Notes under the pieces: generated by a model
Seen by the model: the letters and a program-made list of their open reading frames with translations, nothing else
Told to the model about the DNA's origin: nothing
Database searches by the model: none
Position numbers and translations under genes: made by a program
DNA from: Candidatus Latescibacterota bacterium
GTDB lineage: Bacteria > Latescibacterota > UBA2968 > UBA8231
Assembly (NCBI GenBank): GCA_965217585.1
Contig: OZ244561.1
Location: 832,001 to 896,000, forward strand
Length of the DNA: 64,000 nt
Reading direction: 5' to 3'
Part shown: positions 9,319-45,543 of the stretch, piece by piece
Position numbering within the stretch: the first letter of the stretch is position 1
Layout of the letters: every line of letters begins with the position of its first letter

Positions 9319-11655
9319 TTGGATAAACTAGTGCCTAGTGCCACCTCTGTCTCTGCAGCCCCAGCTTCCATTAGATCGAAATTTAACCACCAAACCAGAG
9401 GTTTTCGTCCTTGCCCCACTGTGCCCGCCCAAGCGAGCGGATCCGCGGGATGGCGTCGGATCCGGATAGTGCTGGCAATCTATGGTGTTCTGGTATTTTT
9501 CGAAACTCCAATTGCCGCCGAACTCATCGTCGTCGGTGGGCCCCAAGGTCTGAGCTGGCAGAGCGGAGGAGGCACCATCCCCGCCTCGGTGATCCGCACC
9601 AGTCGCAGCGTTGAGCGCACCAATACGCCGGGTAGCGTCATCGACTTCGATCCCGAGGCGCGAACTAACTGGATTTTCCCCCAGCGCGCCGATACTTCGC
9701 GCAATATTGCCGTCGGTGCTACCGCCGAGAATCGCGGTGGCAGCATTCGCTCGCTCAACAATCCGGGCGTCCGCAGCCAGCTATCCAACTTGATCGACGA
9801 CAACGGCCTTACGGCGTTGGACCTGCGGCCGACGGCCAGCGGTCAAAGCATTGGTGCCTTGGGGCTGCTCATCGACCTGGATTTGGGCGCCCCATTCGGC
9901 GTCAACCGCTTCAAATTCTTTCCCCGCAACGCCGATCCCGCTTTCCCCGCGCCCGACTTCCCCTTCCAGAACGACTTTATGCGAGCCTTTGAAATTTTTG
10001 TCAACGACGGCTCGGCTCAGAACCAGCGCGAGGGTGTGCCGATCCTGGAAACCTCCGTGCTGGTGGGCCAAAACGAAGAGGCGGTGGTGGATATCCGCAT
10101 CCCCCCCCAGTACATCCGCTTTATTCGCCTCAAATCCCTGACTGCCACCGGATTCGAAATCGCCGAATTTCAGGTCTTTGGCATCGGTTTCGTGCCCGAA
10201 GCCGTGTATTTGTCCAATATCTTTGACTTTGAAGATCTGGCCTTGCTGGGCAACCTGCGCTGGTCCCAAGACGCGCTTGGCGACCCCGACCGGGCCAGTG
10301 CTTGGATCCGCACGCGCACTGGGCGCGATCCTCAACCAGTAGAATTCAACAAAATCCGGCCGGGCGAACGGATCTTCGGCACCTCCGACATTGAGGTGCC
10401 CTGGAAACAGGCCGCCGATGTGGAGGACGAAGACCTCGCCAACCTGATCGAATCGGTCCTCGATAACGAGTCGGTTGATGTGCGGCAAGCTATGGGTGTC
10501 TTTGCAGAGTTGTCCCTTGCGCGCCAGGAACTCATCACCCTCGACGCAGCAGACTACGCCAAGCTGAAGCGCGAAGCCAAAGGCGGCATCCGCGACGATG
10601 TGGTCAATTGGAGCGGCTGGTCTCCCCCCTATCCGGCGACGGGCATTGTCGCCACAGGTCGACTAGAGGACCTCAGCACCGGGATCCCAATAGTCTCGCC
10701 TGGACCCCGGCGCTATTTTCAGTTTCAAATCCAATTCTTCAGCGAGGATTTCGGGGCGGCTGCGGGGGTGGGAGGCTTGGCTTTTGAGGTGCTCACCCCT
10801 CCCTTTGCCGAACAGCTCATTGCCGAAATTGCGCCGCGCACAGTCGCATTGGGCGAGAGCACCCGTTTCACTTACGCCGTGCTCGTTCTGTCCAGGCCGG
10901 GCAAGGACAGGGGCTTCGACCGCCTCGAGATCGATACTCCGCTGCGGGTCACTTCAGTTGGCCAGATCCGGATTCACCGGGGCAAGCAAATCATCCAAGA
11001 GAGCGATTTCTCTGCTGCTGATCTGGACAATCTGCCCGTCTCCGAGAATGGCATGACCATCGTCGAGGTCCGGGACGACGGCTTTGTCCTCTCCTTTCCC
11101 CCCATCGCCGAAGACGGTCTCGTTCTCAGCGTCGAATTCGAAAATGCCGTTCTGGGCTTTGGCACGGCCTTTAGCGGTCGGGTGCAGGAAGGCTCGGCGA
11201 ACACGGGGATATGGCAGGAAGTGATGGCTGGCAACGCCTTCGATCTGGGCTTATTGGGCGTGGATGATCCGGACGTATCGCCCCAGGCTTCCCTGCTGAG
11301 CGGAAATCTCTCCGTGGCCGTGCCCATTTCCAGCAATCTGCTCATTAACGCAGTTCCCGAACCCAATGTTTTCACCCCCAATGGGGACGGAGTCAACGAC
11401 CAGGTATCCATACGCTACGACATCGCCAACATCGTGAGTTCGGCTCCGTTGCAGATCCGCATCTTCGATTTGGCCGGCCGGCCGATCCGGCAGCTCTACG
11501 CAGGAGCCGACCCCAGCGGCCGCTTCTCCCGAATCTGGGATGGCCGGGACGATGGCGGACAGTTGGTTGCTCCGGGGCACTATCTGTTCAACATTGACCT
11601 CGATGCAGCTACAGGTGCCGAGCGTGCGGTGGGTTTGATTAGGCTGGTCTATTGA
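9319..11655 (+). CDS. Cassette protein A1: secreted protein with discoidin-like domain and C-terminal FlgD-Ig / gliding-motility-CTD-like domain
   Basis: IDLDLGAPFGVNRFKFFPR...FEIAEFQVFG; C-terminal FTPNGDGVND...IFDLAGR...WDGRDDGGQLVAPGHY...LVY. Paralog of 32647-34890. True start probably later than the TTG at 9319 (signal-like segment ...LAIYGVLVFFETPIAA-ELIVVG). Confidence 0.75.
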   Translation: MDKLVPSATSVSAAPASIRSKFNHQTRGFRPCPTVPAQASGSAGWRRIRIVLAIYGVLVFFETPIAAELIVVGGPQGLSWQSGGGTIPASVIRTSRSVERTNTPGSVIDFDPEARTNWIFPQRADTSRNIAVGATAENRGGSIRSLNNPGVRSQLSNLIDDNGLTALDLRPTASGQSIGALGLLIDLDLGAPFGVNRFKFFPRNADPAFPAPDFPFQNDFMRAFEIFVNDGSAQNQREGVPILETSVLVGQNEEAVVDIRIPPQYIRFIRLKSLTATGFEIAEFQVFGIGFVPEAVYLSNIFDFEDLALLGNLRWSQDALGDPDRASAWIRTRTGRDPQPVEFNKIRPGERIFGTSDIEVPWKQAADVEDEDLANLIESVLDNESVDVRQAMGVFAELSLARQELITLDAADYAKLKREAKGGIRDDVVNWSGWSPPYPATGIVATGRLEDLSTGIPIVSPGPRRYFQFQIQFFSEDFGAAAGVGGLAFEVLTPPFAEQLIAEIAPRTVALGESTRFTYAVLVLSRPGKDRGFDRLEIDTPLRVTSVGQIRIHRGKQIIQESDFSAADLDNLPVSENGMTIVEVRDDGFVLSFPPIAEDGLVLSVEFENAVLGFGTAFSGRVQEGSANTGIWQEVMAGNAFDLGLLGVDDPDVSPQASLLSGNLSVAVPISSNLLINAVPEPNVFTPNGDGVNDQVSIRYDIANIVSSAPLQIRIFDLAGRPIRQLYAGADPSGRFSRIWDGRDDGGQLVAPGHYLFNIDLDAATGAERAVGLIRLVY

Positions 11656-11674
11656 ATTAACGCGGGGAGCGGGT

Positions 11675-14458
11675 TTGAGATTATTAAGACGCGATGGCCT
11701 CATCATCCTAGTCGGCTTGCTGCTGAGTGGCCCCAACTACGCCCAAGATTACGGCGGACGTCTGGGGACCCCAAGGGGCGGCCAAGTCCACTTTGAGCCC
11801 CGGGGCCCTGGGGTTCTTTTTGGGGCGTTGGACCCGGCCGTCAAGAAGTGGTATGTGCCGCAGGAACTGTTTGCAGACTATGGCTGGCGGCAATGGCAAT
11901 ACTCCAATTATGCCAGAGAATCCTATCAACGCTATGTCAATACCGCGCTGGAAGGGGACTATTTCTACGATTTCTACGGCAATTTTATCGGCCGTGGCTG
12001 GCTGATCTACGACTGGCGTCAAAACCAACCCCAGCAACTGGGTAGTAGCATTTTCAAGGACTCCCTCTTTGGCAACTGGTTCAATTCCGTCGTCATCGGC
12101 GGCGAATCTCAGGGGCAGTACCACTATTCCATAACTGTGGGCAATCAGATCCGCACGACCCTCACGCCGATGACCTTCTCCAAGCCCGCATTCAACGGCG
12201 TGCAAATCGATTTCGCCGCCGACAAGTACGCGGCGACCATACTAACTTCGCGGATCGGCGATCCCGTCACCGGCCAGACCGGGGAACCTGCGAGCCTGAC
12301 CAATACCACCGGCATGCTCGGGGCTCGGGCCACGGTTCAGTTGGGCGATTTTGTCGAAGTGGGTGCAACCCTGGTCAATGCCCGCAATAGCAGTACCAGC
12401 CTCGACCTGTTCAACGGCAATCTGGTCGCTGGCAGCCTAGTCGCCGGCCAGAGTAGCAAGCCGGTGACGGCCATTGCCATCGTACTGAGCGACGATACTC
12501 CGGAGGATGGCAAAGGAGGTGCGGCGCTTTTCTCTCATCAGGTGCGCATCGTCAGCCTGAACTTTGCCACCAATGAGGAGGAAATTTCAACCCTCGAGGA
12601 TGTGGTCCGTCCGGGCTCTGAATGGCCCGTCGTCTTCGGAGGATTCCGTCGCTCCCGGTTCGTGGCCGCCGATGGCGCAGAGCGCATTATTCTGAACTAC
12701 GACTTCAACGATCCAGGCTATGTAGGCCCCGATCCCACTGCGATTGTCAAAGTAGAATTCGACTACGTTCTGGCCAATGACTTCAAGATCGAGATGTGGT
12801 CCGACCGACAGACCGGCAAGCAAAACCAGCCTGCGCCGCCAATAAGTTCCGAAATTATCAGCGCTGCCCAACCCGCTCTCCTGACCGTGCGTCGGGCAGC
12901 GGGCAATGTCCAGGATGCTTCCAATCTACAGCGAGTCCAATTCGCTTATGGTCTGCCCACAGCCAACTTGGTAGGGGGGTTCACGCTCTCGGCAACCAGT
13001 CTGTGGGGTTTTGATTTCTACGGGGAGTGGGACCGCAATAGACGCTATAGCCAGTATCCCAATGCCGCTCTTTTCAGCGCGGGGAAAAAACACCAGACCG
13101 CCCACCGCGAAGCGGATGCCTGGCATTTTAACCTCTCCAGACAGATCTATCCCTGGTTCGGCTATGCCGAAGTCTACTCCTTCGACGAAGCCTATTCCAC
13201 TTCCGCCTTTCTGACCGATGCCAACGGAGATATACACTACGACGACCCTCAGCGCTACCTCTACGAATTTGTCGAGGACAACGATGACCAAGATCGCTTT
13301 GCGGATTGGATTCGCTTCGGCACTGCCAGCGATCGGCTCATCTTCCCCGGCTGGGACGAGAACAATGATTTCATTTCGGACTTCAATCAGAACGACAATT
13401 CTTCGGTGGCCAACCTCGTACCCGACTACGACGAGCCCTTTCTGCGCTACGAGGTCGATCGGCCCGAATTTCTCTTTGGCATCGACCTGAACAACAACAA
13501 TTGGATCGATCGCTTTGAGGACGACGACCTAGCGGACTATCCCTACAAACCCGACCGGCGCGGCTACAACGCTTTTCTTGGGGTCAACCTGAATCCGGCA
13601 GCCCGCTTGATCCTCGGCCACACTGACGAGAAAATGCCTTCGAGCGAAGGTAAAAATCGCACCACCTACGCCCTCCTTACCTTCGACCGGAACGATCCCA
13701 AGCTCGGGCGCCTGCGTTTTTTTGCAATGCTCAAACGGAGTGCAGACACCATTCCCGACGACCGCAGAGAACCCACGCCCTTCATCGATGCGCCACCTAT
13801 TCAGCCCATCGTGCGGGACCTCCTGTCGGCCCAGGACACCTGGATTAACACTACCTGGATCGGCTGGGATAATAAAGGCAGAAGCCGGCTGACCTTCGTC
13901 AACAAGCTAAAGTACGAGATCTTCCACCAAAACGGGGCGCTGGGTCTCGACCGGGAAGGACGCCGCCTGAGGAGAAACGCCAGCTTCTTAGGGCTGATCA
14001 ACAAAGTGGACTACACCTATCCAGTACATCGCTTTGAGGTGCGGCCCCAATTAAAGAGCGAGTTCCTGCGCCAGATACCCTTCGTGCGCCAGCAGGAAAA
14101 GCGGCAAAACTGGATCGCTACCCTCCAACTGCTGGCCGGCTTTCCCCTCCTGCGCCATACCCAGATCGAGGCTGGCTGCGAGTTGCTTTGGTTCCGGGAT
14201 CTAGTGCGGGACGAAGAAGAATTGCTCGAATTGGGTCTGGCGCAAGAGACCGGAGATCTGCAGTCCACGATCCTGGCGATGCAGCTATCCACCAACTCTG
14301 CCTACCAAGGCTATCAGCTAATCACCCAGATTGGCTTTCGCGTCGGCCGCACCCGCAATGAGATCCTGCGCGGAGGCGAGGGGGACCGCTTAGAAAAAGC
14401 CCACGAGAGCAATAACGAGATGACCAGCTTTATCACCGTCTACGCTGGAATCGAATAA
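11675..14458 (+). CDS. Cassette protein B1: large exported protein, probable outer-membrane beta-barrel with Asp/Asn-rich Ca-binding-like segment
   Basis: Signal peptide ending NYA-QDYG; alternating hydrophobic beta-strand pattern in the C-terminal part; ends ...SFITVYAGIE; close paralog of 34902-37721. Confidence 0.65.
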   Translation: MRLLRRDGLIILVGLLLSGPNYAQDYGGRLGTPRGGQVHFEPRGPGVLFGALDPAVKKWYVPQELFADYGWRQWQYSNYARESYQRYVNTALEGDYFYDFYGNFIGRGWLIYDWRQNQPQQLGSSIFKDSLFGNWFNSVVIGGESQGQYHYSITVGNQIRTTLTPMTFSKPAFNGVQIDFAADKYAATILTSRIGDPVTGQTGEPASLTNTTGMLGARATVQLGDFVEVGATLVNARNSSTSLDLFNGNLVAGSLVAGQSSKPVTAIAIVLSDDTPEDGKGGAALFSHQVRIVSLNFATNEEEISTLEDVVRPGSEWPVVFGGFRRSRFVAADGAERIILNYDFNDPGYVGPDPTAIVKVEFDYVLANDFKIEMWSDRQTGKQNQPAPPISSEIISAAQPALLTVRRAAGNVQDASNLQRVQFAYGLPTANLVGGFTLSATSLWGFDFYGEWDRNRRYSQYPNAALFSAGKKHQTAHREADAWHFNLSRQIYPWFGYAEVYSFDEAYSTSAFLTDANGDIHYDDPQRYLYEFVEDNDDQDRFADWIRFGTASDRLIFPGWDENNDFISDFNQNDNSSVANLVPDYDEPFLRYEVDRPEFLFGIDLNNNNWIDRFEDDDLADYPYKPDRRGYNAFLGVNLNPAARLILGHTDEKMPSSEGKNRTTYALLTFDRNDPKLGRLRFFAMLKRSADTIPDDRREPTPFIDAPPIQPIVRDLLSAQDTWINTTWIGWDNKGRSRLTFVNKLKYEIFHQNGALGLDREGRRLRRNASFLGLINKVDYTYPVHRFEVRPQLKSEFLRQIPFVRQQEKRQNWIATLQLLAGFPLLRHTQIEAGCELLWFRDLVRDEEELLELGLAQETGDLQSTILAMQLSTNSAYQGYQLITQIGFRVGRTRNEILRGGEGDRLEKAHESNNEMTSFITVYAGIE

Positions 14459-17359
14459 ATGAAACGGGATGTGCTGCCTAAAGGGCGGCTTCTTTCAGTC
14501 CAAGTGCTTCTGGTATTGGTCTGCTCCTCGGCCGTCTCCGCCCAGACCGACTACGATCATCGCCTCGGCAGACAGCAGGGAGCGGGGCGTATCTATGGCA
14601 CAACGGGGCCAACCACACTATTGGAGGCGCTGGATCCCACCGTCCATCGCTGGTACTTGCCACAAGAGCTGTTCGCGGAATACGGCCGGCGTCAGTGGCG
14701 CTACACCAACTACGCCCGGGAGCCTTATTTGCGCTACCTCAGCCGGGGGCAGGAGGGCCTCTTCTTCTACGATGTGTACGGCAATTTCACTACCCGGGGT
14801 TGGCTCGTATACGACTGGCGCCAGACCCAGCCTTTGCCCTTTGACGCCAGTCAGCTCACCAAACCCGGACGCTACGATAGCTGGTTCCAGCGCCTGCTCA
14901 TCTCATCCGATGCCAGCGGCGACTACAACTATTCGATCATCATCGGCGATGAGATCAATGCCACGCTGACCCCCATGACCTTTCGCAAGGCGGGTTTCAA
15001 TGGCGTGGTAGCCAATCTGGGAACCAGCCGCTTCCAGGCCACGAGCTTATTTTCCCGGGTCTCGGCACCCAGCATCGCCATTGACCCCCTAGCGCCCACC
15101 GCTTCGGTTGCGAACTTTACCAACCTCGTCGCCGGGCGTCTTCAGGCCGACATCCTCCCCCATCTCTCCCTAGGTCTGACCCTGGTCAATGCCCACAACG
15201 GCAACGGCTCCAGCGAGAGTTTTAAAGACAATCCCTTCCAAGGCTCGCTGACCACAGGCCAGTTAGAGCGGCGCCAAAACTTAGTCATAGTGCGTCTCGG
15301 CGACGATTCGCCCGAGGATGGCGAGGGCGGTGCCATACTTTTTGCGCAGGAGGTGGAAATTGCCCTCAAACTCAAACGCCAGATCGTGGCCGGAGACTCA
15401 GTGACCGTCGTGGCCAAGGACACCCTCATCGCGGGCAGCAGCATCGGCTTTAGACCGCTGCGCCAGGGTGGTAAACTGCGCGATGGATTCTTGACAGCCG
15501 ATGGGGCCGAGTCCATTACCCTCAAGTACGTGCTCGCACCCGAGGAAGGGGAGAGCGAAGAAAGCAGCCTGCGCCTGGCCCTGCAGCGGCGTCTGGGGAT
15601 GAGCCTGGCAGAGGCAGAGGACGCTATAAGCAGCATCGAAAACGTGCGCTTCCACTTGCTTATGGCCAACGACTACCGCATCGAAGTGAGCTCGGACCGG
15701 CAGACCAATGCCGTCGGCCAGCCCCAATTCCTGCTGGTCGCTCAAGCTCCGGGAAATATCAAAAACCGGGCGAACCAACGCGAGATCATCTTCGACTACG
15801 GTCTGCCCACGGCCAACCAACTCTTCGGGATTAGCGCCGAGGTGCGCAATTTCCGTGGATTTGATTTCTATGGAGAATTCAACCTGAACAACCAGTACCG
15901 CAAATACCCGGGCATCAGCGCCAAAAGTCACCGAGCTTTTGCGGGTATCGTAGGAGAGGAGCAAGCCATCGGCTGGATGGCGAATTTGTCCAAGCGAACT
16001 GGCCCTTGGCACCTTTTCGCAGAAGCGTTTGGCATGGACGCAACCTACACCACCAGTGTCCTGCCCGTCGATAGCCGCGGCGTGACCGACTATTCACCCG
16101 CAGCCACGGTCCGCCTCTACGATTTTGTCGACGACAACGACGACCAAGACCGCCATCCCGACCAACTGCGGATCTTCCAGGGCAGCTTGATTCCCCTGCC
16201 CGGAGAGCGCTTCAGGATCCGCCCTAGGGGCTCGGCCGATCCGGCTGTTTTCCCCGGCTACGACGAGAATGGCGATTTCATCTCCGACTTCAACCAAAAC
16301 AGCAACGGAGACCGGGAAAATTTCTTCCCCGACTACGAGGAGCCTTTCCTGCGCTATTATTCAGATCGACCGGATTTTCTCTTCGGGGTGGATCTCAACA
16401 ACAACGGCTGGATCGACCGCTTCGAGAACGACGATCGGCCGGATTATCCCTATAAAAAAGACCACTGGGGCCATAACCTCTACGCCAGCCTCCAGTTCAA
16501 TCCACAGATCAAATTGACCGTAGGGCGTCTGCATCAGACCAAGCGCCAAGACGATCGCCGCAATACCACGATGTACGGACTGTTCACCTTTTCTAAAGAC
16601 TGGTCCGGGCGCGGCAAGCTCCGACTCTTCGACATGCTGAAAAAGGCCCGGGACACCATCGCTGACCCCCTCTCCCAATGGATGCTGCCCCCGACCCAAT
16701 TCGGCCAACCCGCCGAGACCAGCGGACTCCATATACCCGTGCCCGATGCCTTGGCCGCCAAGGACACCTATATCAATACCTTTTACGCCGACTGGGAGCA
16801 AAGCACCCAGCGTTGGGCTTCTCTGCACCGGTTCAAGTGGGAGATCTGGCAACAGGCCAAAAGTGGGGATGCCCTCAACGCACTGGGTAGCGAGGGGAGT
16901 AGCGACAGGAGGACTTCGGGTTTTCTGGGTTTAATCAATAAAATAGAGCATCTGTTCTATCTGGGTCCCCTGACCATAGCGCCCAAATTCAAGAGCGAAT
17001 TCCTGCGCCGGGTGCCCTTCACCCAGACCGAGGAAAAGCAGCGCTCGTGGGACGCCTTGTTCTTTTTAACCGCCGCCCTTCCCTTGCTGCGCTCCACCGA
17101 GGTGGAAATGGGTGTGGAACACCGGCAGTTCTTCGATCTGCAAAAGCGAGAGGACGGCCTAGGTGCCGGTCGCTTTAGCGGAGACTTCGGAGGTTGGGTC
17201 CTGGCTCTGCAGTTGACCACCCAGAACCCCTATCAGGGATACGAGTTGACCACCCAACTGGGCCTGCGCTTTGAACGACGCACTCTAGAGGTAGTGGGTG
17301 GCGAAGGTGCCAACCGGAGCTCGGGACTGGCTTTTCTTTCGATCTTCGCAGGCTTTTGA
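14459..17359 (+). CDS. Cassette protein C1: paralog of B, probable outer-membrane beta-barrel
   Basis: ATG directly follows the TAA of B1; signal ending VSA-QTDY; shares LDPxVxxWYxPQEL, RGWLxYDWRQxQP, TLTPMTFxK and the acidic segment with B; ends ...AFLSIFAGF (terminal Phe, beta-signal-like). Confidence 0.65.
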   Translation: MKRDVLPKGRLLSVQVLLVLVCSSAVSAQTDYDHRLGRQQGAGRIYGTTGPTTLLEALDPTVHRWYLPQELFAEYGRRQWRYTNYAREPYLRYLSRGQEGLFFYDVYGNFTTRGWLVYDWRQTQPLPFDASQLTKPGRYDSWFQRLLISSDASGDYNYSIIIGDEINATLTPMTFRKAGFNGVVANLGTSRFQATSLFSRVSAPSIAIDPLAPTASVANFTNLVAGRLQADILPHLSLGLTLVNAHNGNGSSESFKDNPFQGSLTTGQLERRQNLVIVRLGDDSPEDGEGGAILFAQEVEIALKLKRQIVAGDSVTVVAKDTLIAGSSIGFRPLRQGGKLRDGFLTADGAESITLKYVLAPEEGESEESSLRLALQRRLGMSLAEAEDAISSIENVRFHLLMANDYRIEVSSDRQTNAVGQPQFLLVAQAPGNIKNRANQREIIFDYGLPTANQLFGISAEVRNFRGFDFYGEFNLNNQYRKYPGISAKSHRAFAGIVGEEQAIGWMANLSKRTGPWHLFAEAFGMDATYTTSVLPVDSRGVTDYSPAATVRLYDFVDDNDDQDRHPDQLRIFQGSLIPLPGERFRIRPRGSADPAVFPGYDENGDFISDFNQNSNGDRENFFPDYEEPFLRYYSDRPDFLFGVDLNNNGWIDRFENDDRPDYPYKKDHWGHNLYASLQFNPQIKLTVGRLHQTKRQDDRRNTTMYGLFTFSKDWSGRGKLRLFDMLKKARDTIADPLSQWMLPPTQFGQPAETSGLHIPVPDALAAKDTYINTFYADWEQSTQRWASLHRFKWEIWQQAKSGDALNALGSEGSSDRRTSGFLGLINKIEHLFYLGPLTIAPKFKSEFLRRVPFTQTEEKQRSWDALFFLTAALPLLRSTEVEMGVEHRQFFDLQKREDGLGAGRFSGDFGGWVLALQLTTQNPYQGYELTTQLGLRFERRTLEVVGGEGANRSSGLAFLSIFAGF

Positions 17360-17431
17360 TAGGCGCTTGGCCTCTTACTTGCAGGCTGGGTGCACTATTC
17401 GGACTCCTCGAGCGGTGTTCTACAAAAAAGT

Positions 17432-17460
17432 TTGACATTCTTTCTTAGATGTCGTATTTA
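17432..17460 (+). promoter_or_regulatory. Putative sigma70 promoter for small secreted protein S1
   Basis: Perfect TTGACA at 17432 followed 17 nt later by TATTTA(T), in an AT-rich intergenic region; the -10 match is imperfect. Confidence 0.4.
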
Positions 17461-17542
17461 TGAAAAATTAGCTTATATAGCAGTCCTAAATGACTTGAAA
17501 GCACGGAATGTTCATCGGCACGGTCTCTTCTGCCTATAAGAA

Positions 17543-17569
17543 GTCATTCCCGCGCAAGCGGGAATCCAG
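17543..17569. repeat. REP-like palindromic element (GTCATTCCCGCGCAAGCGGGAATCCAG)
   Basis: ATTCCCGC-GCAA-GCGGGAAT hairpin; same family as the dimer at 30590-30643; resembles CGTC-type REP / dRS3-like palindromes. Confidence 0.8.
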
Positions 17570-17650
17570 TCTTGAATGATTTAGGGTTGCTATATGACCA
17601 TCTCGATTAGGCTATTTTACCATCTATATCTCCCTCATCAAGGAGGCAAT

Positions 17651-18586: not shown

Positions 18587-18615
18587 CTGATTGGCACCGA
18601 GTTCAATAAAATAAA

Positions 18616-18660
18616 AAGGAGGGTGGATCGCTCAAGCGATCCACCCTCCTTACTTTTTAT
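18616..18660 (+). terminator. Intrinsic terminator / stabilising hairpin after S1
   Basis: 17-bp perfect inverted repeat AAGGAGGGTGGATCGCT / AGCGATCCACCCTCCTT followed by ACTTTTTAT. Confidence 0.85.
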
Positions 18661-18682
18661 CGATAATTACAGGGTCTGAACC

Positions 18683-20632: not shown

Positions 20633-20675
20633 AGATTGACTGGCAAGTCTTGGTCTTAACCGGGGGCGATCATCT

Positions 20676-25616: not shown

Positions 25617-25795
25617 GAGTTCAGCTCCTCCTTGCCAAATCGAAAAATAGCCCGCGTCGGGAAATGGGCCAGCGATCGAGAGCGAATATATAAGTCTCAT
25701 TGTCCGTTGCCAAAACAAGGACACCTGGGAAGCTATTAGTGATCATCGACGCTCATACCCAATACTGTCCAACCTCTAGCCGGTCCACCTCACCC

Positions 25796-27736: not shown

Positions 27737-27744
27737 GAAGAGAT

Positions 27745-29432: not shown

Positions 29433-29457
29433 GCAAAAAATTAAATGGTTGGAGCTT

Positions 29458-32601: not shown

Positions 32602-32646
32602 ATTTGTGGCCGCGTTCTCGCTTAGTTTCACTGAAAAGGGACTGAC

Positions 32647-34890: not shown

Positions 34891-34901
34891 AAGCCTACGA
34901 G

Positions 34902-37721: not shown

Positions 37722-37723
37722 AG

Positions 37724-40665
37724 ATGAATTCGCGCGCCTGGCGCCTCTGGGCAGTGACGGTCGTAGGACTGGCCGGTGCCGCCTCTGCCCAGCCGGAGTA
37801 CGGCTATCGGCTAGGCGAACGAGTCGGCGACCATGTCGTCTATTCCACCCGTGGCGTGCCGATTTATACCGCAGCCCTAGAGCCCACAGTACAGCGCTGG
37901 TATTTACCAGCCAGTTTATTCTCCGAAAACCACCACCACCAATGGGAATACACCAACTACGCCCGGGATCCCTTCCTGCGCTACGTCAGTTCCAGCTTGG
38001 AAGGAAATCTGTTCTACGATGGCTTTGGCAGCCTAATCACTCGCGGCTGGCTCATTTACGACTGGCGTCAGGTGCAGCCGCGCATCGCCGAAAGCTCTCA
38101 GATATTCAAGGCGAGCCAGTACATGCGATGGTTCAACAGGCAATTGCTGGCCGTCGACAGCAAGGGAGATTACAGCTTCTCCATCCTCGTCGGCGACGAA
38201 CTCAATACTACACTGACGCCGATGACGTTCAGAAAGGCCGGCTTCAATGGGATCATGGCCAACTTGGCGACTAATCGCCTGCGCCTCACAGGACTCTTTT
38301 CCCGCATCTCGGGACCGGTGCTGCTAGAGACCGTGGGCCTGGTCGATCCCAGAGTCAACTCCACCAATCTGGTAGCGGGCCGCACCGAAGTGGATCTGTT
38401 CACGGGCTTGACCATAGGACTGAATCTGGTCAATTCCCACACTTCTAATGGCAGTCGGGAAAGTTTCGCCGGCAACCCCTTCAAGGGCGAGCTATCGACG
38501 GGCCAGCTCGAGGACGCACTGCGCTCGGTCCTAGTGCGGCTCAGCGATGACTCACCAGAAGACGGCGAGGCAGGGGCCATCCTCATCGCTAGGGACATCG
38601 AGATAAAAACCAAGCTCAAACGTCCTTCCCCTGCGGATCCAGCGGTATTAGTGGAGCGGGATACCCTCATTGTCGGCAGTTCTTTTGGCTTCGACGCCAG
38701 CCAAATTCAGGGTGGTTCGGTGAGGAACGGTCTGCTCGTGGCCGACGGGGCCGAGAGCATTGTATTGCATTACGTCTTGGCTCCTGCGCAGGGCGAGAGC
38801 GAAAAAGGCTCCTTGCGGCTGTTGCTGCAGCAGCGACTAAATCTGAGCCTAGCAGAGGCCCAAGATGTAATCCAGGCGATCGAAAATGTGCGCTTTCGCC
38901 TAATATTGGCCAACGACTATCGCGTGGAAATGAGCTCGGATCGGCAGACCAACCGCTTTGGCGTGCCCCAATTCCTGCCGGTCACCAGAGCCGCAGGCAA
39001 TATCAAGAATGAGACCAACAGCCGCGAGGTGGTTTTCGACTATGGTCTGCCCACGGCCAATCTGCTGTACGGCCTCAGCGCCGAATGGCGCAATATGCGC
39101 GGTTTCGATTTCTACGGGGAAGTAAATATCAATTCCAACTATCGGAAATACCCGAATCGGCACCAAAAGCATCACCGCGCAATTGCGGGCATTGCAGGTG
39201 ACAAAAGGTCGCTGGGCTGGCTGGCTACTCTCTCTTGGCAAAGCTACCCTTGGTCGGCATTCTTGGAAGGCTTTGGCATGGACGACTCCTATTCCACCAG
39301 CGTTCGTCCCGTGCCCCCATCTGGAGTTGCCAACTACGCCCCCGAAGCCACCGAGGTTCTCTACGATTTTGTCGAAGACAACGACGACCAGGATCGCCAA
39401 CCCGATCAAAAGCGCGCCAATCAGGGTAGTCTGGTGCCGCCACAAGTAGGCGATTTTGACATCGACCAGACCGGAGTCGCCGACCCAGAAGTCTTCCCGG
39501 GTTATGACGAAAACGGAGATTTCATTTCTGATTTCAACCAGAACCACAATCCCATCCGCCGCAACCTGCTGCCCGATTATGACGAACCGTTTTTGCGCTA
39601 CCACTCCGACCGGCCCGAGTTTCTCTTTGGCATGGATCTGAACAACAACAACTGGGTCGATCGCTTCGAGAACGACGATTTGCCCGATTACCCGTACAAA
39701 AAAGATCACTGGGGCTACAATGCCTACAGTAGCCTCCAACTCGGTCCGCAAGCCAAGCTGACTCTCGGACAGCTACGGCAGGAAAAACGCGAGACGAGCG
39801 AGGAGAATCTGACGACTATGGCCTCCTAACCGCGGTCGAGGATCTGCCGGGCAAGGGCCGCCTGCGCCTCTTCGATATGTTGAGATTGGCTAAGGACGAT
39901 ATCCCCGACCCCTTGTCGCAGTGGATCGTATCCACGCCCGAATTTGGCGATCCGGGAGTCGACAGTGGGCGTCATGTCCAAATTCTAGATCGCCTAGGGG
40001 CCGCAGATACGTGGATCAACACCTTCTATGCGGACTGGAAATACGCCAGTCCGAACCAGTGGAGTACCTTTCACCGGTTTAAATGGGAAACCTGGCGTCA
40101 GCGCAATACGGGCAATCGCTTGCTCGTCGATGACGAGGGCAGTCAGGTGGGCACCGGCGGCGAATCCGTCGCTATCTACGACCCCCTCGGTCCACAAGGC
40201 CGCAACGGTCGCCGGTCCTCGGGGTTTTCGGGCTTAATCGACAAGGTGGAATACCAGTATTCGTGGCGGGGTTTGACCATCTCGCCCAAAGCGAAAAGCG
40301 AGTTCCTCAGCCAGACCCCCTTCGACCGGACAGTGGACAAACGCCGCACCTGGGACGCGCTTTTCTTTTTGCAGATCCACTTTCTCGTCCTGCGCACGAC
40401 CAGGATCGAAGGCGGTTTGGAACAGCGGTTCTTCTACAATGTCCTAAACTCGGAAGAAAATCTGCAAGTCGGACAGCTCAGCGGCGATTTTCGCGGCACG
40501 GTGCTGGCGCTCCAACTCACGAATCCAAGTACCTATTTGGGCTACAAATTGATCGCGGAGGTGGGCATGCGCTACGATCGGAGATCCCTAGAAAGGGTCG
40601 GCGGCAAACGCCAGCAGAAGGCCTCGGGTCTGTTCTTCGCCTCCATCCTGGCGGGTCTGCGCTGA
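37724..40665 (+). pseudogene. Cassette protein C2 (paralog of C1), split by a 1-nt deletion near 39816 (real lesion or assembly error)
   Basis: ORF 37724-39829 matches the N-terminal part of C1 and ORF 39877-40665 its C-terminus. Adding one base in ...CTG ACG AC-TAT GGC CTC CTA... restores NLTTYGLLTAVEDLPGKGRLRLFDML (C1: NTTMYGLFTFSKDWSGRGKLRLFDML), giving 980 aa. Confidence 0.85.
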
Positions 40666-40725
40666 GTCGATAGTACTTTGTATATAATTATATGGTGTAG
40701 CACCCCTGAAAAAGAGGAGCGAATA

Positions 40726-42732
40726 ATGCCATTGGTCCAAATAGGCCGCCTGGCGTCTCTGCTGTGTTTTGGATTCTGTCTCGCCCTTTGGGGGCACCAA
40801 GACAGCGGGGCATTGACGGTTTACCGGATCGGCGGCGAAGATCTGCCCGCGCCCGAGGCGGCCGATTTCGGCGTTCCACCCGAATCTTTCCGCTTCGAGC
40901 AGCGGTCTTGGCTGTCTTTCGAGGATGACGACTTTGGCAGCGCCAACCTGCTCGACCTAGCACCGGGTCATATTCGGCCCCAGACTCTGGACAAAGAGAT
41001 CAATCTCACGCCGTTGATCCGCGAGCGAGGGGGGTCCATCAAGATCAACGACGGCTACGGCTGGAAAGACGAGGCGCAGCTAGATTTTCTCTTTGACGAC
41101 GACGAGACCACGGCCTTTTCAGGGGATACGGGGGGCAGTCTGCGCTGTGCTAATGGCACCCCGGGGAGAGGAGGCATCATGGATGCCCTCGGGGGCGATC
41201 CCATTGCGCAATGCAGGTATTTCAAATTCGATTTGGGCGGGGCGTTTATCATCGACCGGGTTCGATTTTTTGGCACTCCGAGACGAGGCGATACCTTTTT
41301 TCCCCGGTCCTTCCGGTTGGGCACAAACGACGGGGATGCGCTCAAAGACGGAGAGCGGGAGATCAAGTTGACCTGGCGCGGCAAAGCCTTCGTCGACTGG
41401 GATGTCGTTGTCGAGCGCCTGGAGAACACGGACGCGGTCCTGGACTTTCAATTGCCTCTCGAGCCCGTGCAAATCCTCATATTCGAGGCTCTTCAGGGCA
41501 AATGGGAAATCGCCGAGTTGCAGATTTTTGGCACGGGGTCGGCCCCCTTTGCCAGCTACATTTCGAGTATTATCGATTTGGGCGGCCCGGCCGTGCTGGG
41601 AGAATTGACCTGGTCCGGCAACCAATCACCGACAGGGCGCATCGACCTGACTGCCCGCGGTGGCGACACGTCCGATCCCAATACGTACTGGCGTTTTACC
41701 TTCAGAGGGGATGAAAGGTCTCGTTTCAATGCCAATGGCCAACCCCTCAGTCGCCGCGCCTACGCCAAGTTGGAAGGGGGAGAGAAGGCGGGCATAACCC
41801 CCGACGAACAGAATTGGGAACTGTGGCCACCTTTTTTTTCTTATGGGGATGGCCGTGCCGAGATGAGCCGTCTCAAACCCCGTCAGTTCCTCCAGTTCAA
41901 GGCCGATTTCCACTCGCCGCCAGGAGGGGAAAACAGCCGGCTCGACTATCTCCAATTCGCCGTTACGCAACCGCCCATGGCAGCAGGAGTCGTAGCCGAA
42001 ATAGCACCCGCTGTCGTCGGCGCTGGCGAGCCGACGCGGTTTATTTACAAGATATTGCCCCAGATCCAACTGGGGGAGTCGGGTTTCGACACTATTGAAA
42101 TCCGCACGCCCATCGAGCCGCGGCTCGAATCCGTGTCCATTAGCGGCACCGAAGTGGAGTGGGCGGTCCTGCGGGTGGACGCCACCGGTCTGGAAGTGCG
42201 GATTCCCCGCATCGGCGACGACCGTTCGGGGGAGTTGATCGAAGTCGTTTTCGAGGCAGAGGTGTTCCGTTTTGGCACGGTATTTCCCGGCGCGGTCTGG
42301 GACAGCGAACGGCCCTACGAAGTGCGCCAACCAGTGACGCCGGGCAATGCCGACGATCTGGTGGATAACAACAGGCTCAGTGTGGCTCTGCAACAAACGG
42401 GCAAGCAGTCCATAGGGCGCTTCGAGCTGTCTTCTCGGGTGGTAACGCCAAATGGAGATCTGGCCAATGACGAGTTGCTGATCGAGTACGACCTCATCAA
42501 TGTCGATAGCGCTGGCGCTGGCATCGCCCGGCTCGAACTCTACGGGCTGGCGGGAGCGCGCATCGGGGTGTTGCAGCAAACCCAGATAACCAGCGGCCGG
42601 ATTCATTTCTCGTGGCCCGGCACCGATGGCGATGGTCAGGTGCTGCCGCCGGGCCTCTATATCCTCCGGCTGGCTGTCGCCGCGGACCGCGCTACGGACA
42701 CGGCGTTTCGCTCCGTAGCAGTGGCGTATTAG
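40726..42732 (+). CDS. Cassette protein D2 (paralog of D1)
   Basis: GAGGAG RBS before ATG 40726; LTVYRIGGE, DPNTYWRFTF.GD..SRF, LEGGEKAGIT, RLDYLQF shared with D1; VTPNGDLAND...WPGTDGDG...PGLY...VAY. Confidence 0.75.
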   Translation: MPLVQIGRLASLLCFGFCLALWGHQDSGALTVYRIGGEDLPAPEAADFGVPPESFRFEQRSWLSFEDDDFGSANLLDLAPGHIRPQTLDKEINLTPLIRERGGSIKINDGYGWKDEAQLDFLFDDDETTAFSGDTGGSLRCANGTPGRGGIMDALGGDPIAQCRYFKFDLGGAFIIDRVRFFGTPRRGDTFFPRSFRLGTNDGDALKDGEREIKLTWRGKAFVDWDVVVERLENTDAVLDFQLPLEPVQILIFEALQGKWEIAELQIFGTGSAPFASYISSIIDLGGPAVLGELTWSGNQSPTGRIDLTARGGDTSDPNTYWRFTFRGDERSRFNANGQPLSRRAYAKLEGGEKAGITPDEQNWELWPPFFSYGDGRAEMSRLKPRQFLQFKADFHSPPGGENSRLDYLQFAVTQPPMAAGVVAEIAPAVVGAGEPTRFIYKILPQIQLGESGFDTIEIRTPIEPRLESVSISGTEVEWAVLRVDATGLEVRIPRIGDDRSGELIEVVFEAEVFRFGTVFPGAVWDSERPYEVRQPVTPGNADDLVDNNRLSVALQQTGKQSIGRFELSSRVVTPNGDLANDELLIEYDLINVDSAGAGIARLELYGLAGARIGVLQQTQITSGRIHFSWPGTDGDGQVLPPGLYILRLAVAADRATDTAFRSVAVAY

Positions 42733-42762
42733 CTGTGCGGGTTGGCGCCGGGAGTGCTTGCT

Positions 42763-45543
42763 ATGCCTAAAATCTCGCCTAGAATTTTTATAATCGGCGC
42801 GAGCGCTTTCTGGCTCCTCAGCGGATGGACCTCAATCCGCGCTCAGACCACCAACGAGTTTCGCACCCGACCGAACCAGATCGTCGTGAGCGCCCAGAGC
42901 CATTGGGAGGATTGGGACTTTCCCGCCGGCACTCTTGAGATTTCCCCCCGTGGGGCAGTACGGCCGCGCCGCTGGAATCGCAATACAGACGCCACTGAGG
43001 ACATTGTCGATTTTCTGCGCTTCCAGCTCGAAGCGTCACAACGCGATCCCACGCTGTTCAAAATTCCCCAGCGCCTGCAGGGCAAGGAGGTCGCTGAAAT
43101 CTCTCTGCGAGATGCCGTCGTGGCAGCAGGTTCGAACCCCGCAGGAGTAGTCAATGTCCTCGACGGCGACCCCACTACCTTTTGGGAACCAGCGCCGCTG
43201 CCGGCGGGTGTGGATCCGGCGGGTGTGGATGTCGGCGCCCTTTGGTGGTTTACGGTGGATCTGGGACGTCTGGTTTTCCTCAAGAAAATCGAGCTGAAAT
43301 TCGTCGATGAAGATCTGGGCGACCCCTTCCTGTTGTACGATGTCCTCGTATCGGACGGGCGCAAACCCATTGCCGCCCAATCGGGAAACGCCCCACCCGA
43401 ATTTTTCCCCGTCCTGATCTCTCTCAAGCCCAATAAGACCCAACGCAGCGTCGAGGTGGACCTGCGCGGCATCACGGGTCGCAGAGAATTGGGCGGCGAG
43501 CAGGATGAGTTTCTGGCGGAACAGATCCAATTTGAGGATTTGGCGGAGGAGTCTGGTGCGACCACAGACATGGCGACGCTGGTCGGACGTTTTGTCCAGG
43601 TCGTCATAAGAGGCAGCGACCTGAACCGAGGCCGCCAGATCGCCAAAGCGGAATTCGAGCAACTCGCCCCGGCCGATACGGGCGCGGTTGAGTATTACAA
43701 AAAACTGCCCGACGGCGGCCAGTTGCAAGTATCGAGGCAAGTCTACTTCGACCGCCTCGCAGAGGAAAAGCGCGGCGACATCCGCTATTATATCCGCGAG
43801 CGCCCGCGCTTAGCCGAGCTCAAGGTCTGGGTCGAAGGGGATGATATCTTCCACGGGACATTGCGCCGGGGCGGGATCATAAGCTCGCCCGATCCCCGCA
43901 ATGGAGCGATCCTCCTCGATGGCGATGTGGACTCCGCTCATTTTCTCGACCTCTACCGAGATCCCAAATTCAATTTGGGTCCCATCGGCACGGTGACTTT
44001 CGATCTGGGATCGTTTTTCTGGCTAGACGCGCAAAGGATGACCTATACATTCATCGATAACGACGCCCATACTTTTGGTAACTATACCCTAGAAGTTTCG
44101 GATGGCAGCAGGGAGCCCGATGGCAGCCTCAAGTGGTCCATCAGCGTAGATCGCAGACAGACCGAAACCTTGGGCGGTTTGATCGGCAAGATCACGGAGG
44201 GCAATAACTTCGATCCCGTCGTTGGCCGTTTTTTCAAGATCCAGTGGAATGTCCAACCCATCGCCGCGAGGATCCTGACCGCACTGAGTGAGTTCCAGCT
44301 TTTCGGCGCTGGCTTTCAGCCCCAAGTCGAGCTGACGTCGGAGCGCATACCTTTGGGAAACAGCAAAAATTTGCTGTCTATCGAATGGGATGCCGATACG
44401 CCGCCCGGCACCAAGATAGAGCTACAGACGCGGACGGGGGACACCTTCAGTCCGGATACGCTCTACTATCACGGAGACAATATAAGACTCTACGAAGGAG
44501 GTGCTGTAGAATACTACACTCGCAGAAACCGGCGCGACAAAGGCAACAAAATAGGCATCTGGGTCGATGGGCCGGAGTGGGAAAAGTCCTTTAGTGCACC
44601 GTACGAAAACGCCGCCGGCAGCCCCATCACCTCGCCCTCACCGCGCCAATTTGTCCGCATTCGAGCCACGTTGTTCTCCAACGAGCCAGAAGTCCACGCC
44701 ACCCTCAAAGAGATCCGGCTCAATTTTGCCGCGCCGGTGGCTCGGCACCTGTTGGGCGAAGTTACCCCTACCCAGGTCGACAGCCTCGGCGTCCAGCGTC
44801 CTTTTTCGGTATACATCCGGCCGGATACCGTCAGTGCCGGAGGATTCGATCAGCTCTTGCTCGCAGCCCCCCCCCAGATGCGTCTGACCTATCGCGGGCT
44901 ATACGGGGGCAAAGGCAGCGATTTTTCGCCGGCCGCCGATCTGGCCTCTCTGGAGATCGCAGAGGTCGATGTCCGCAGCGATCGCTCGGATAGCCTGCAT
45001 CTGACTTTTCCGGCCGTACTGTCGGAGTCGGATATTGAACTGTTCCGCCTCGATTTCGCCACGGCTCTTTTCACGGTAAGTGCACCGCTGAGAGCAGCCC
45101 TGCGGCGGGGAGACGACGGTTGGTGGCAGCGCGTGGACGCGGGAGACGCCGCCGCGCAAGTCACCGACAACGATCTAACGCTGGTCGCGCTACCGAGGCG
45201 CAAGGAAATTTTCCGCAACTTAGCGATCGAGCCGCAGGTATTTACGCCCAATGGGGACGACATAAACGATGCGGTGAGGTTTATATTCGACGTCGTGTTG
45301 ATCCGTCAGAACAGTGCCGTCGAAATCCATATCCACGATCTGGGCGGTCGCCGGGTGAGAAGCATTTCCGAGCGGCGTCCGGTGGTCACTGGTGCCCATG
45401 CGCTCGAATGGGACGGCAGAGACCATGCTGGAAATCTCGTGGCGCCCGGCGTGTACGTCGTCCTGCTCAAGATCGATGCCAATACGGAGGGGGCTGGCCT
45501 CGACGCGAGAGATCTCGCCCGCACGGTGGCGGTCGCCTACTAG
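42763..45543 (+). CDS. Cassette protein E2 (paralog of E1)
   Basis: IRA-QTTN; W.FP.GTLE, LWWFTVDLGRL, GDPFLLYDVLVS, RERPRLAEL, QTRTG, SPSPR shared with E1; FTPNGDDIND...WDGRDHAG...PGVY...VAY. Start set at ATG 42763. Confidence 0.75.
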   Translation: MPKISPRIFIIGASAFWLLSGWTSIRAQTTNEFRTRPNQIVVSAQSHWEDWDFPAGTLEISPRGAVRPRRWNRNTDATEDIVDFLRFQLEASQRDPTLFKIPQRLQGKEVAEISLRDAVVAAGSNPAGVVNVLDGDPTTFWEPAPLPAGVDPAGVDVGALWWFTVDLGRLVFLKKIELKFVDEDLGDPFLLYDVLVSDGRKPIAAQSGNAPPEFFPVLISLKPNKTQRSVEVDLRGITGRRELGGEQDEFLAEQIQFEDLAEESGATTDMATLVGRFVQVVIRGSDLNRGRQIAKAEFEQLAPADTGAVEYYKKLPDGGQLQVSRQVYFDRLAEEKRGDIRYYIRERPRLAELKVWVEGDDIFHGTLRRGGIISSPDPRNGAILLDGDVDSAHFLDLYRDPKFNLGPIGTVTFDLGSFFWLDAQRMTYTFIDNDAHTFGNYTLEVSDGSREPDGSLKWSISVDRRQTETLGGLIGKITEGNNFDPVVGRFFKIQWNVQPIAARILTALSEFQLFGAGFQPQVELTSERIPLGNSKNLLSIEWDADTPPGTKIELQTRTGDTFSPDTLYYHGDNIRLYEGGAVEYYTRRNRRDKGNKIGIWVDGPEWEKSFSAPYENAAGSPITSPSPRQFVRIRATLFSNEPEVHATLKEIRLNFAAPVARHLLGEVTPTQVDSLGVQRPFSVYIRPDTVSAGGFDQLLLAAPPQMRLTYRGLYGGKGSDFSPAADLASLEIAEVDVRSDRSDSLHLTFPAVLSESDIELFRLDFATALFTVSAPLRAALRRGDDGWWQRVDAGDAAAQVTDNDLTLVALPRRKEIFRNLAIEPQVFTPNGDDINDAVRFIFDVVLIRQNSAVEIHIHDLGGRRVRSISERRPVVTGAHALEWDGRDHAGNLVAPGVYVVLLKIDANTEGAGLDARDLARTVAVAY

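Follow-up and report, generated by a model that had tools for sequence, protein, structure and literature searches.

The polysaccharide utilization loci (PULs) built on SusC and SusD occur in dozens per genome and combine an outer-membrane protein of about 1000 amino acids with surface binders and with genes for accessory enzymes and transport. Two gene cassettes that recall this organization are found in a stretch of 64,000 nucleotides from a Candidatus Latescibacterota bacterium (GenBank assembly GCA_965217585.1, contig OZ244561.1, positions 832,001 to 896,000 of the forward strand; hereafter the window, from whose first letter positions are counted). Each cassette contains five large genes, here called A, B, C, D and E, and a smaller one, X. 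Both cassettes belong to a larger family of modular envelope loci, about 50 in number, in which one or more members of a large protein family (B/C) stand beside members of a second family (A/D/E) and a recurrent set of accessory genes. Tentatively, we read these loci as PUL-like capture and import modules built from parts unrelated to SusC/SusD.

Two further kinds of described system deserve comparison. Passages of PMC12618676 report that, in Flavobacterium, cargo proteins whose C-terminal domain (CTD) is of type B are genetically linked to cognate PorP/SprF-like shuttle proteins, and parts of PMC9143113 are a further source for such pairs. SlpA, as described in sections of PMC9388160, is a 30-stranded barrel with pore insertions that hold acidic metal sites.

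Comparison with described systems

Like the SusC/SusD PULs, the Latescibacterota loci are present as dozens of paralogues that pair a B/C gene coding for about 1000 amino acids with binder genes, accessory enzyme and transport genes are linked to them, and the modules duplicate and diverge as units. Unlike SusD, A, D and E appear not to be lipoproteins and carry a C-terminal domain resembling that of type IX secretion system (T9SS) cargo; in addition, there are three binder subfamilies here instead of one, and the loci are accompanied by genes for an isomerase of the parvulin type and for a DUF6785 protein. The likeness to the type B CTD and PorP/SprF pairs of Flavobacterium and Porphyromonas resides in the position of special-CTD genes next to a dedicated outer-membrane protein gene and in the weak matches of A, D and E to TIGR04131 and to CHU_C. 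However, B and C are about three times larger than PorP/SprF and unrelated to them by sequence, three cargo subfamilies accompany a barrel, the phylum is a different one, and the models tried did not detect a motor of the GldKLMN type. With SlpA/OmpM of Deinococcus-Thermus and diderm Firmicutes, B and C have in common their large size and acidic, probably metal-binding insertions, but they form massive paralogous families in substrate-type loci and not one abundant structural protein.

Identity with SusC, SusD, PorP/SprF and SlpA was tried and rejected. The Plug domain (PF07715) of TonB-dependent transporters, SusC included, is absent from B1, C1, B2 and C2, and a comparison of coordinates places all 25 Plug matches of the genome outside the B/C genes; as for homology to the 22-strand barrel of these transporters, comparison of the B-family alignment with 24 TonB receptors of the genome by hhalign gave a probability of 0.11% over 17 columns. 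No SusD-type Pfam match was obtained for A, D or E, and the usual L-x-[AG]-C lipobox is absent from all six proteins, less clearly so in D1 and D2, where a Cys lies near the end of the hydrophobic segment. These results bear out the sequence-only reading of the window, a model's earlier annotation, which had seen neither a TonB plug in B/C nor a SusD motif in A/D/E. The model of the PorP/SprF shuttles (PF11751, about 300 amino acids) matched none of 28 B/C members at E<=1, and in a search of the whole genome, as in the control genomes, it remained silent. As candidates for SlpA/OmpM, the B/C proteins reach at best 29.9 bits against a cut-off of 35 and possess neither an SLH domain nor a coiled-coil stalk. 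Thus, B/C and A/D/E fail the tests for SusC, SusD, PorP/SprF and SlpA, while the logic of the loci resembles that of PULs and of CTD cargo with a cognate barrel.

No named system of this make-up was found in Pfam, NCBIfam, the PDB sequences or the main texts of the literature searched, in agreement with the failure of the sequence-only reading to recognise one, and no curated family covers B/C, X, the lipoprotein described below or the whole module. Two papers on these lineages are silent about the system: in PMC7081726, none of the words FG-GAP, outer membrane, TonB, FlgD and hypothetical occurs, and the passages of PMC8163846 that mention Latescibacterota do so solely for glycoside hydrolase enrichment.

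Organization of the two cassettes

The five genes were described from the sequence as occurring twice, in the same order and on the plus strand, and all ten open reading frames (ORFs) are indeed in place (Table 1); the starts assigned to D2 and E2 are ATG codons in frame within their ORFs. By BLASTP, each gene is nearest to its positional counterpart, with identities of 47% over 732 amino acids for A1/A2, 61% over 911 for B1/B2, 59% over 698 plus 46% over 261 for C1/C2, 42% over 667 for D1/D2 and 44% over 930 for E1/E2. Identities across positions are lower, namely 37-41% between B and C and 24-31% among A, D and E, which agrees with the two superfamilies, A/D/E and B/C, that had been proposed. 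Profile-profile comparison revealed no homology between the two families (probability 0.2%). The B-C junctions are as short as first noted (0 nucleotides in cassette 1 and 2 in cassette 2), and the signal peptides ascribed to all ten proteins find support in an N-terminal hydrophobic stretch in each (Kyte-Doolittle mean over 10 amino acids of 2.1-3.1).

The description as a five-gene cassette was only partly accurate, given that A-B-C-D-E does occur twice but a sixth gene, X1, lies between C1 and D1, and C2 is split, its frame ending prematurely and continuing in a different one. The orthologues of C2 (>=90% identity) are whole in 8 of 8 related loci, with 967-980 amino acids, and the break at 39827-39877 consequently reflects either a frameshift private to this genome, with the gene turning into a pseudogene, or a fault of long-read assembly. 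X1 and X2 are 41% identical in the alignment of their family and fall in one cluster.

A family of loci across the genome

The genome consists of a single contig of 7.32 Mb. Genes were called with a simple ORF caller of our own, ORFs shorter than 100 amino acids or nested by more than 40% in a longer ORF being dropped from the genome-wide scan, and the family counts depend on the thresholds chosen. A search with a B-type profile retrieved 81 ORFs of the B/C family, corresponding to about 79 genes in 52 loci. The A/D/E profile matched 264 ORFs, 169 of them over more than 300 profile positions; these 169 make up the set used below, while the remaining 95, which cover fewer than 300 positions, have the C-terminal domain alone in common. 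The B/C family occupies 3.0% of the genome and the A/D/E family 5.2% (8.2% in sum). Most of the A/D/E genes (138 of 169) are located within 12 kb of a B/C gene, in DNA that amounts to 19.3% of the genome. The cassette is therefore duplicated in the window, as had been noticed, but the two copies belong to a set of 52 loci with B/C genes, of which eight show a B-C tandem of the window's kind.

In a maximum-likelihood tree of the 169 A/D/E proteins, A1/A2, D1/D2 and E1/E2 fall into separate clades of 32, 50 and 57 genes, respectively, with 30 proteins outside the three; A, D and E are three old subfamilies. Exactly one A, one D and one E are present in 16 loci, nine with one B/C gene and seven with two, and most of the other A/D/E loci are variants of this arrangement (ADDE, ADEE, ADDDE, AAE). 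A second class (6 loci) combines one E-type gene, two genes outside the three clades and one B/C gene, and a third class has two or three divergent B/C genes in tandem with at most two A/D/E-type genes. The fixed composition of three plus two subunits deduced from the window alone is accordingly not upheld.

The divergent B/C genes of the third class form a subgroup with profile scores of 180-350 (contig positions 3752202-3760726, 4386437-4395066 and 7034310-7042853, among others), in which two or three genes stand in tandem, often beside DUF4159, lipoprotein and FG-GAP genes. These loci are a different module type on the same B/C family. A search with a divergent B/C paralogue gave 16 matches. 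The SlpA_C matches discussed in the next section come from this subgroup.

The modules are old, with copies that are 30-73% different. Across the 17 loci with one A, D and E each, correlation of the matrices of pairwise distances for B, A, D and E gave r values of 0.76-0.94, and none of 2000 permutations attained the observed correlation; therefore, the modules duplicated and diverged as units. It is important to note that block duplication alone suffices for such a correlation, so it is no evidence of physical contact between the proteins.

The B and C proteins

B1, C1, B2 and C2 have no Pfam, NCBIfam or PDB-sequence match at normal thresholds, and comparison of the PDB sequences with single B/C sequences and with two profiles returned nothing meaningful. 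The proteins begin with a signal-type N-terminus, contain no further hydrophobic helix and, in Pfam scans, lack a CTD or any other export tag, unlike A, D and E. The sole recurring Pfam match is to SlpA_C (PF21620), an outer-membrane barrel model, which was obtained at E<=1 for 7 of 28 diverse B/C members and for 4 of 5 further metagenomic members, the best E values being 2.5e-7 and 1.6e-6 (29.9 and 27.3 bits). All 9 matches of this model in the genome at E<=1 lie within B/C genes, and the matched part corresponds to residues about 400-520 of B1. An Asp/Asn-rich stretch with invariant D/N columns (B1 535-627) probably binds calcium.

As a stand-in for the fold, residue covariation was analyzed by mean-field direct coupling analysis, with a reduced alphabet for 437 sequences (effective number of sequences, Neff, 242) and with the full alphabet on parts of the protein for 517 sequences (Neff 303). 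In the latter alignment, residues 665-919 show ten consecutive antiparallel ladders (665/687, 686/725, 724/748, 742/777, 777/794, 794/816, 819/850, 842/860, 870/887 and 887/919) with scores of 2.2-4.3, seven of which exceed the 99.9th percentile (2.69), the other three scoring 2.24-2.47. The ladders describe an up-down beta-meander of at least 11 long strands, in which short and long connections alternate. Further hairpins are seen at 140-250 and 431-505, and the strand near 220-232 pairs with a strand near 434, an arrangement that points to an inserted domain at residues 250-430. Nothing could be learned from a simple scan of the hydrophobic moment. At the C-terminus, the family has the conserved sequence F-I-T-V-Y-A-G-[LIV]-[EDQ]; in C1 the terminal residue is aromatic. 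Altogether, we consider it probable, with rather good confidence, that the B and C proteins are outer-membrane barrels.

The A, D and E proteins and their presumed export

According to their alignment, all six A/D/E proteins share one architecture, in which a discoidin-like domain ending in IAEFQ.FG is followed by several beta-rich middle domains and by a C-terminal Ig-like domain. The F5_F8_type_C model matches E1 at E 1.5e-4, below the cut-off, and E2 is likewise weak; most of the 120 E homologues listed are annotated with PF00754, PF22633, PF13585 or PF13860, and NedA-like domains also occur in the E family. For the C-terminal domain, the Pfam cut-off is 27 bits for both CHU_C and FlgD_ig. 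CHU_C exceeds it in A1 (34.1 bits) and A2 (27.8), stays under it in D1 (26.8), E1 and E2, and gives no match in D2; FlgD_ig exceeds it in A1 (30.4), A2 (35.2), E1 (30.3) and E2 (31.1) and stays under it in D1 (24.9) and D2 (25.4). The domain also matches the C-terminal domain of PorU. Judged from these domains, A, D and E look like secreted ligand binders, and the F5/8 type C domain of E together with the T9SS-like C-terminal domain of all three subfamilies speaks for the earlier proposal of surface ligand-binding subunits.

The sorting domain itself appears to be of a particular kind. Against the type B model TIGR04131 (cut-off 35), the A/D/E proteins reach 26.1 bits at best, and the type A model TIGR04183 matches D1 weakly (E 0.069). 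In the whole genome, TIGR04183 has 133 matches at E<=1e-3, 28 of them within the 169 A/D/E genes. Only one of the 90 strong matches (>=30 bits) falls in an A/D/E gene, as against 27 of the 43 weaker ones. Being scarce among the former and common among the latter, the A/D/E proteins would thus carry a sorting-domain subclass apart from canonical type A. A terminal Tyr is found in 162 of the 169 proteins, V-[AV]-Y being the commonest ending. Regarding the secretion machinery, SprA (604.8 bits, cut-off 200) and PorU (627.5 bits, cut-off 420) are present in the genome, and a PorV-like gene (153.8 bits, cut-off 250) adjoins PorU. T9SS components have been reported in other phyla that belong to the FCB group (Fibrobacteres-Chlorobi-Bacteroidetes), as stated in passages of PMC11285876.

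The X family and other recurrent neighbours

The genes around the B/C family were surveyed by clustering 600 other ORFs located within 12 kb of B/C genes and scanning representatives of the clusters. The make-up of the module proposed from the window, A to E, was enlarged in this way by four components that the sequence-only reading had not noticed: a CBM9-like protein (X), an isomerase of the parvulin type, a lipoprotein and a membrane protein with DUF6785.

The X family comprises 49 genes in the genome, 39 of them near B/C genes; by neighbour clustering, 38 genes are found in 37 loci. With a profile built from 23 X paralogues, a match at E 2.6e-4 was obtained to PDB 1I82, the CBM9 module of xylanase 10A from Thermotoga, and Pfam CBM9_1 matches 4 of the 23 (best E 6.6e-6), X1 itself giving no match. 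In 93% of 97 members of the family, a His directly follows the predicted signal cleavage site (cleavage between A and H), and a second conserved His belongs to a D-x-D-H-S-G-G motif. An N-terminal histidine is the hallmark of the copper 'histidine brace' proteins, and a metal site at this position of X is, for now, only an idea. At the other end, 27 of 38 X paralogues carry the tag TAVE..SWGxIKxxF (residues about 295-311 in X1). The tag ends 39 of the 5669 called proteins of the genome: besides the 27 X proteins, it is borne by 12 small secreted proteins of other kinds. Perhaps it serves for sorting or docking, as a signal that has so far gone unrecognised.

The two-domain parvulin isomerase, which is SurA/PrsA-like, is encoded by 35 genes in 35 of the 52 loci; the whole genome has 47 such genes, so that 35 of the 47 are no more than 12 kb from a B/C gene, and the NCBIfam peptidylprolyl isomerase models match below their equivalog cut-offs. 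The lipoprotein family (about 255 amino acids, no library match) has 22 genes in 21 loci, and 22 of its 25 members in the genome are near B/C genes. The membrane proteins with DUF6785 and DUF6784, candidates for an inner-membrane permease, number 36 genes in 32 loci and 77 in the genome. The FG-GAP/ASPIC-UnbV proteins are represented by 71 genes in 39 loci in the neighbour clustering and, genome-wide, by 120 genes, of which 62 are near B/C genes. Both the DUF6785+DUF6784 and the FG-GAP/ASPIC-UnbV families are very large expansions of families without a known function. PhyH dioxygenases (18 genes in 11 loci), sulfatases (8 genes, in 8 loci) and DUF4159 proteins (8 genes) complete the list of recurrent neighbours.

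Distribution and conservation in relatives

When 151 genomes of the phylum were sampled, 94 proved to have the B/C family. All 63 genomes from the window's own family have it, each showing tens of candidates at first look; two other families belonging to the same class, sampled with 49 genomes, yielded none. Public protein data contain 1284 B/C clusters at 50% identity, and all the source names seen were 'hypothetical protein' from metagenome-assembled genomes (MAGs) of Latescibacterota/Latescibacteria or 'Gemmatimonadota/-etes'. Five of the MAGs with the latter name have the same contig coordinates as genomes assigned to the window's family or genus, which makes this a difference of naming.

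Gene order was compared in 79 related loci, which were picked by their likeness to B1 and are thus biased to this subtype, many coming from few genomes, and the relatives are non-independent samples. A is followed by B in 74 of the 79 loci, and A-B-C, with or without the isomerase between B and C, is kept in 72, which sustains the earlier view that the two superfamilies have long been held together as an envelope module. At least two D/E genes accompany A-B-C in 55 loci; of the 79, 28 have D/E genes directly downstream of A-B-C and 21 directly upstream; the gene set is therefore conserved and the order A-B-C-D-E, which the sequence-only reading expected to be kept, is not. X is present in 55 of the 79 loci and the isomerase in 52 (between B and C in 11). 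In the loci orthologous to the second cassette, X2 stays beside A2.

Possible function of the modules

Under the reading that we prefer, B and C would be large outer-membrane beta-barrels, each with an inserted domain of about 180 amino acids and an Asp/Asn-rich, probably calcium-binding stretch, and one barrel or a B-C pair of barrels would serve as the outer-membrane conduit. A, D and E, one member of each old subfamily, would be exported via the SprA/PorU-type (T9SS-like) pathway and held by their CTD subclass at the surface, on or beside the cognate barrel, where their discoidin-type domains would capture a ligand, probably a glycan or glycoconjugate. The CBM9-like X would add a further binding module, the locus-specific parvulin isomerase would chaperone the barrel or the cargo in the periplasm and so serve assembly, and the DUF6785/DUF6784 protein would carry the product across the inner membrane. 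Each locus may have a different ligand.

Uptake is favoured over pure display because of the size of the barrel, because polytopic membrane proteins and catabolic-type enzymes are linked to it, because the copy number is PUL-like, and because the B/C genes (about 79) are threefold as many as the TonB receptors (25) of the same genome. Several observations weigh against this proposal. B and C have no plug, no TonB-box-like element and no apparent energy source for import. Every SlpA_C match to B/C is under the Pfam cut-off of 35 bits. No contact between a first and a last strand appears in the covariation, the best ladder from N- to C-terminus scoring 1.78 against a 99.9th percentile of 3.44 (Neff per residue is about 0.3, which makes this a weak test), and the covariation consequently does not reveal a closed B/C barrel. 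Among the 77 B/C proteins with ORFs of at least 800 amino acids, only 8 have a terminal Phe and most end in Y-A-G-[LIV]-[EDQ], an atypical beta-signal; by comparison, the terminal residue is Phe in 12 of 24 TonB receptors of the genome. As for secretion, GldM gave no match in the genome and GldK only sub-threshold FGE-type matches, with models that were silent or non-specific in the control genomes. Few recognisable glycoside hydrolases occur among the recurrent neighbour families (single-copy neighbours being mostly unannotated), and DUF6785 is a domain without known function, with only 36 of its 77 genes near B/C genes. Finally, the location of B/C and A/D/E, and the contact between them, are presumed.

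A bolder version of the import proposal, which we regard as speculative when all its parts are taken jointly, is a new kind of nutrient-acquisition machine at the outer membrane, which Latescibacterota would have evolved without any relation to SusC/SusD and in which plugless giant barrels of a hitherto unclassified family are loaded from the outside with a fixed trio of T9SS-delivered discoidin-type binders. In it, the binders would recognise their own barrel via the dedicated CTD subclass; X with its N-terminal His, the isomerase and the DUF6785 permease would assist, and T9SS secretion and uptake would be coupled in one module type, present about 50 times per genome.

Somewhat doubtful, although it deserves attention, is the main alternative, namely that the loci are display or anchoring platforms without import. 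In that case, the A/D/E cargo would be shuttled or anchored at the outer membrane by its cognate B and C proteins, and the modules would supply a diverse set of surface adhesins or proteins for interaction with a host. The tight linkage of CTD-protein genes to genes of probable outer-membrane proteins, as in the type B CTD and PorP/SprF pairs, is what this alternative would predict; so are the CTD subclass of A/D/E, with V-[AV]-Y as its commonest ending, and the co-divergence of cargo and B/C, and both discoidin and FG-GAP proteins are common adhesin modules. However, at about 900-1000 amino acids the B/C proteins are roughly 3 times as large as PorP/SprF, and they do not match PF11751, a model to which the control genomes were silent as well. 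Anchoring also leaves unexplained the linked DUF6785 proteins, sulfatases, dioxygenases and metallohydrolase, and why one barrel needs exactly one each of three cargo subfamilies.

A different possibility, which we consider improbable, is that B and C are soluble, i.e., secreted or periplasmic calcium-binding, beta-rich scaffolds, and that the loci encode cellulosome-like extracellular assemblies for the binding or degradation of polymers. The lack of barrel closure in the covariation, the atypical C-terminal motif, the Asp/Asn-rich stretch with its invariant D/N columns and the lack of an above-threshold PDB or Pfam barrel match would all fit such a scaffold. On the contrary, one would not usually expect in a soluble fold an uninterrupted up-down meander of 11 or more long strands whose connections are alternately short and long, the sole recurrent model match is to an outer-membrane barrel, B/C have no CTD or other export tag while A/D/E have one, and a SurA-like chaperone gene is present in 35 loci. 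A structural role, in which B and C, as barrels of the SlpA/OmpM kind, would give order to the outer membrane or tether it under a surface layer of A/D/E, is very unlikely: the sub-threshold similarity to the SlpA barrel model and the proposal, in sections of PMC9388160, that this 30-stranded barrel may anchor a surface layer point to it, but Pfam detects no SLH domain or coiled coil in B/C, and the role is ill-suited to about 79 diverged paralogues, 30-60% different from one another, in 52 differently equipped loci.

Whatever their function, two protein families that curated libraries do not name take up about 8% of a 7.3-Mb genome, and each of the 63 genomes sampled from the window's family shows comparable numbers. 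If the modules are PUL equivalents, they would explain how an uncultured, widespread phylum of the FCB group feeds, they would represent a second, independent solution for glycan capture at the outer membrane, and they would connect uptake with the T9SS. Annotation pipelines would also gain from them a marker for substrate loci in this phylum. Even if the anchoring alternative is true, the modules would be a new class of CTD-and-barrel pairs outside Bacteroidota.

Other features of the window

The features of the window are collected in Table 1.

Table 1. Genes and other elements of the two cassettes and their surroundings (positions in the window).
Feature	Position	Strand	Description
DUF6785-type membrane protein, second copy	474-2417		
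Parvulin peptidyl-prolyl isomerase	7401-9140	-	Periplasmic type, two parvulin domains; Pfam Rotamase_2, Rotamase, Rotamase_3
A1	9319-11655	+	A-subfamily secreted protein, T9SS-like FlgD-Ig-like C-terminal domain; A clade of the 169-gene tree
B1	11675-14458	+	927 aa, B/C family, signal-type N-terminus; probable large outer-membrane beta-barrel
C1	14459-17359	+	966 aa, B1 paralogue (38% identical), C-terminus ...IFAGF
Promoter-like TTGACA-17 nt-TATTTA	17432-17460	+	Upstream of X1; reading of the sequence
X1	17651-18586	+	311 aa, secreted, CBM9-like, X family; likely ATG 17651 (ORF 17594-18586)
Terminator-like hairpin	18616-18651	+	16-bp stem, between X1 and D1
D1	18683-20632	+	D-subfamily secreted protein, T9SS-like C-terminal domain
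E1	20676-23222	+	E subfamily, additional N-terminal discoidin (F5/8 type C) domain and T9SS-like C-terminal domain
DUF3604 / CehA-McbA family metallohydrolase	23294-25108	+	Pfam; NCBIfam NF038032 82.1 bits (cut-off 80)
DUF6785+DUF6784 polytopic membrane protein	25700-27736	+	Pfam 419 and 95 bits; 10-12 hydrophobic segments
X2	29458-30375	-	Paralogue of X1 in the same family; belongs to cassette 2, just upstream of it
A2	32647-34890	+	Pfam FlgD_ig and CHU_C; BLASTP counterpart A1
B2	34902-37721	+	939 aa, 61% identical to B1
C2	37724-40665	+	Frameshift-split: 37724-39829 (701 aa) and 39877-40665 (262 aa)
D2	40678-42732	+	Likely ATG 40726; Pfam FlgD_ig below cut-off; BLASTP counterpart D1
E2	42742-45543	+	Likely ATG 42763; Pfam FlgD_ig, weak CHU_C and F5_F8_type_C

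The promoter-like element and the terminator-like hairpin that flank X1 are complemented by a strong Shine-Dalgarno sequence ahead of this gene. The rule of the promoter scan needs a T at the last position, so the TTGACA/TATTTA element is not in its list. Overall, the promoter and terminator scans of the window did not rise above shuffled sequences (10 vs 7.0±2.7, 25 vs 16.3±4.2, 7 vs 6.8±2.3 and 25 vs 19.4±4.5), and Rfam has no match in the window.

Metatranscriptome contigs from two runs of one study, 90-99% alike to the window, correspond to X1, the isomerase gene, the 3' end of C1 and the DUF3604 and DUF6785 genes. Contigs about 97% alike cover all of X1 (17624-18587) with depths of 154 and 58.6, as against 5.7-27.1 for the other RNA contigs listed, although contig depth cannot rank genes. 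The gap between C1 and X1 also contains a palindromic element, GTCATTCCCGCG-loop-CGCGGGAATCCAG (17546-17572), of which the genome holds 20 copies with the flanking GTCA...CCAG ends constant in all. A very high depth in the bin 17005-17671, observed in all three runs, coincides with this GTCATTCCCGCG/CGCGGGAATCCAG hairpin, and the element is for this reason probably shared with other organisms.

Directly 3' of E2, the segment 45637-47796 contains a gene of the D-glutamate cyclase family and a gene with a PRiA4b ORF-3-like domain. Further downstream, two large overlapping genes occupy 47906-54779 on the minus strand, where the GC content is 0.63 against about 0.57 elsewhere. One codes for an SNF2/helicase protein with a NOV_C domain (1205 amino acids) and the other for a protein of 1112 amino acids with an N-terminal Swt1-like HEPN domain and DUF499; the segment looks like a defence-type island.

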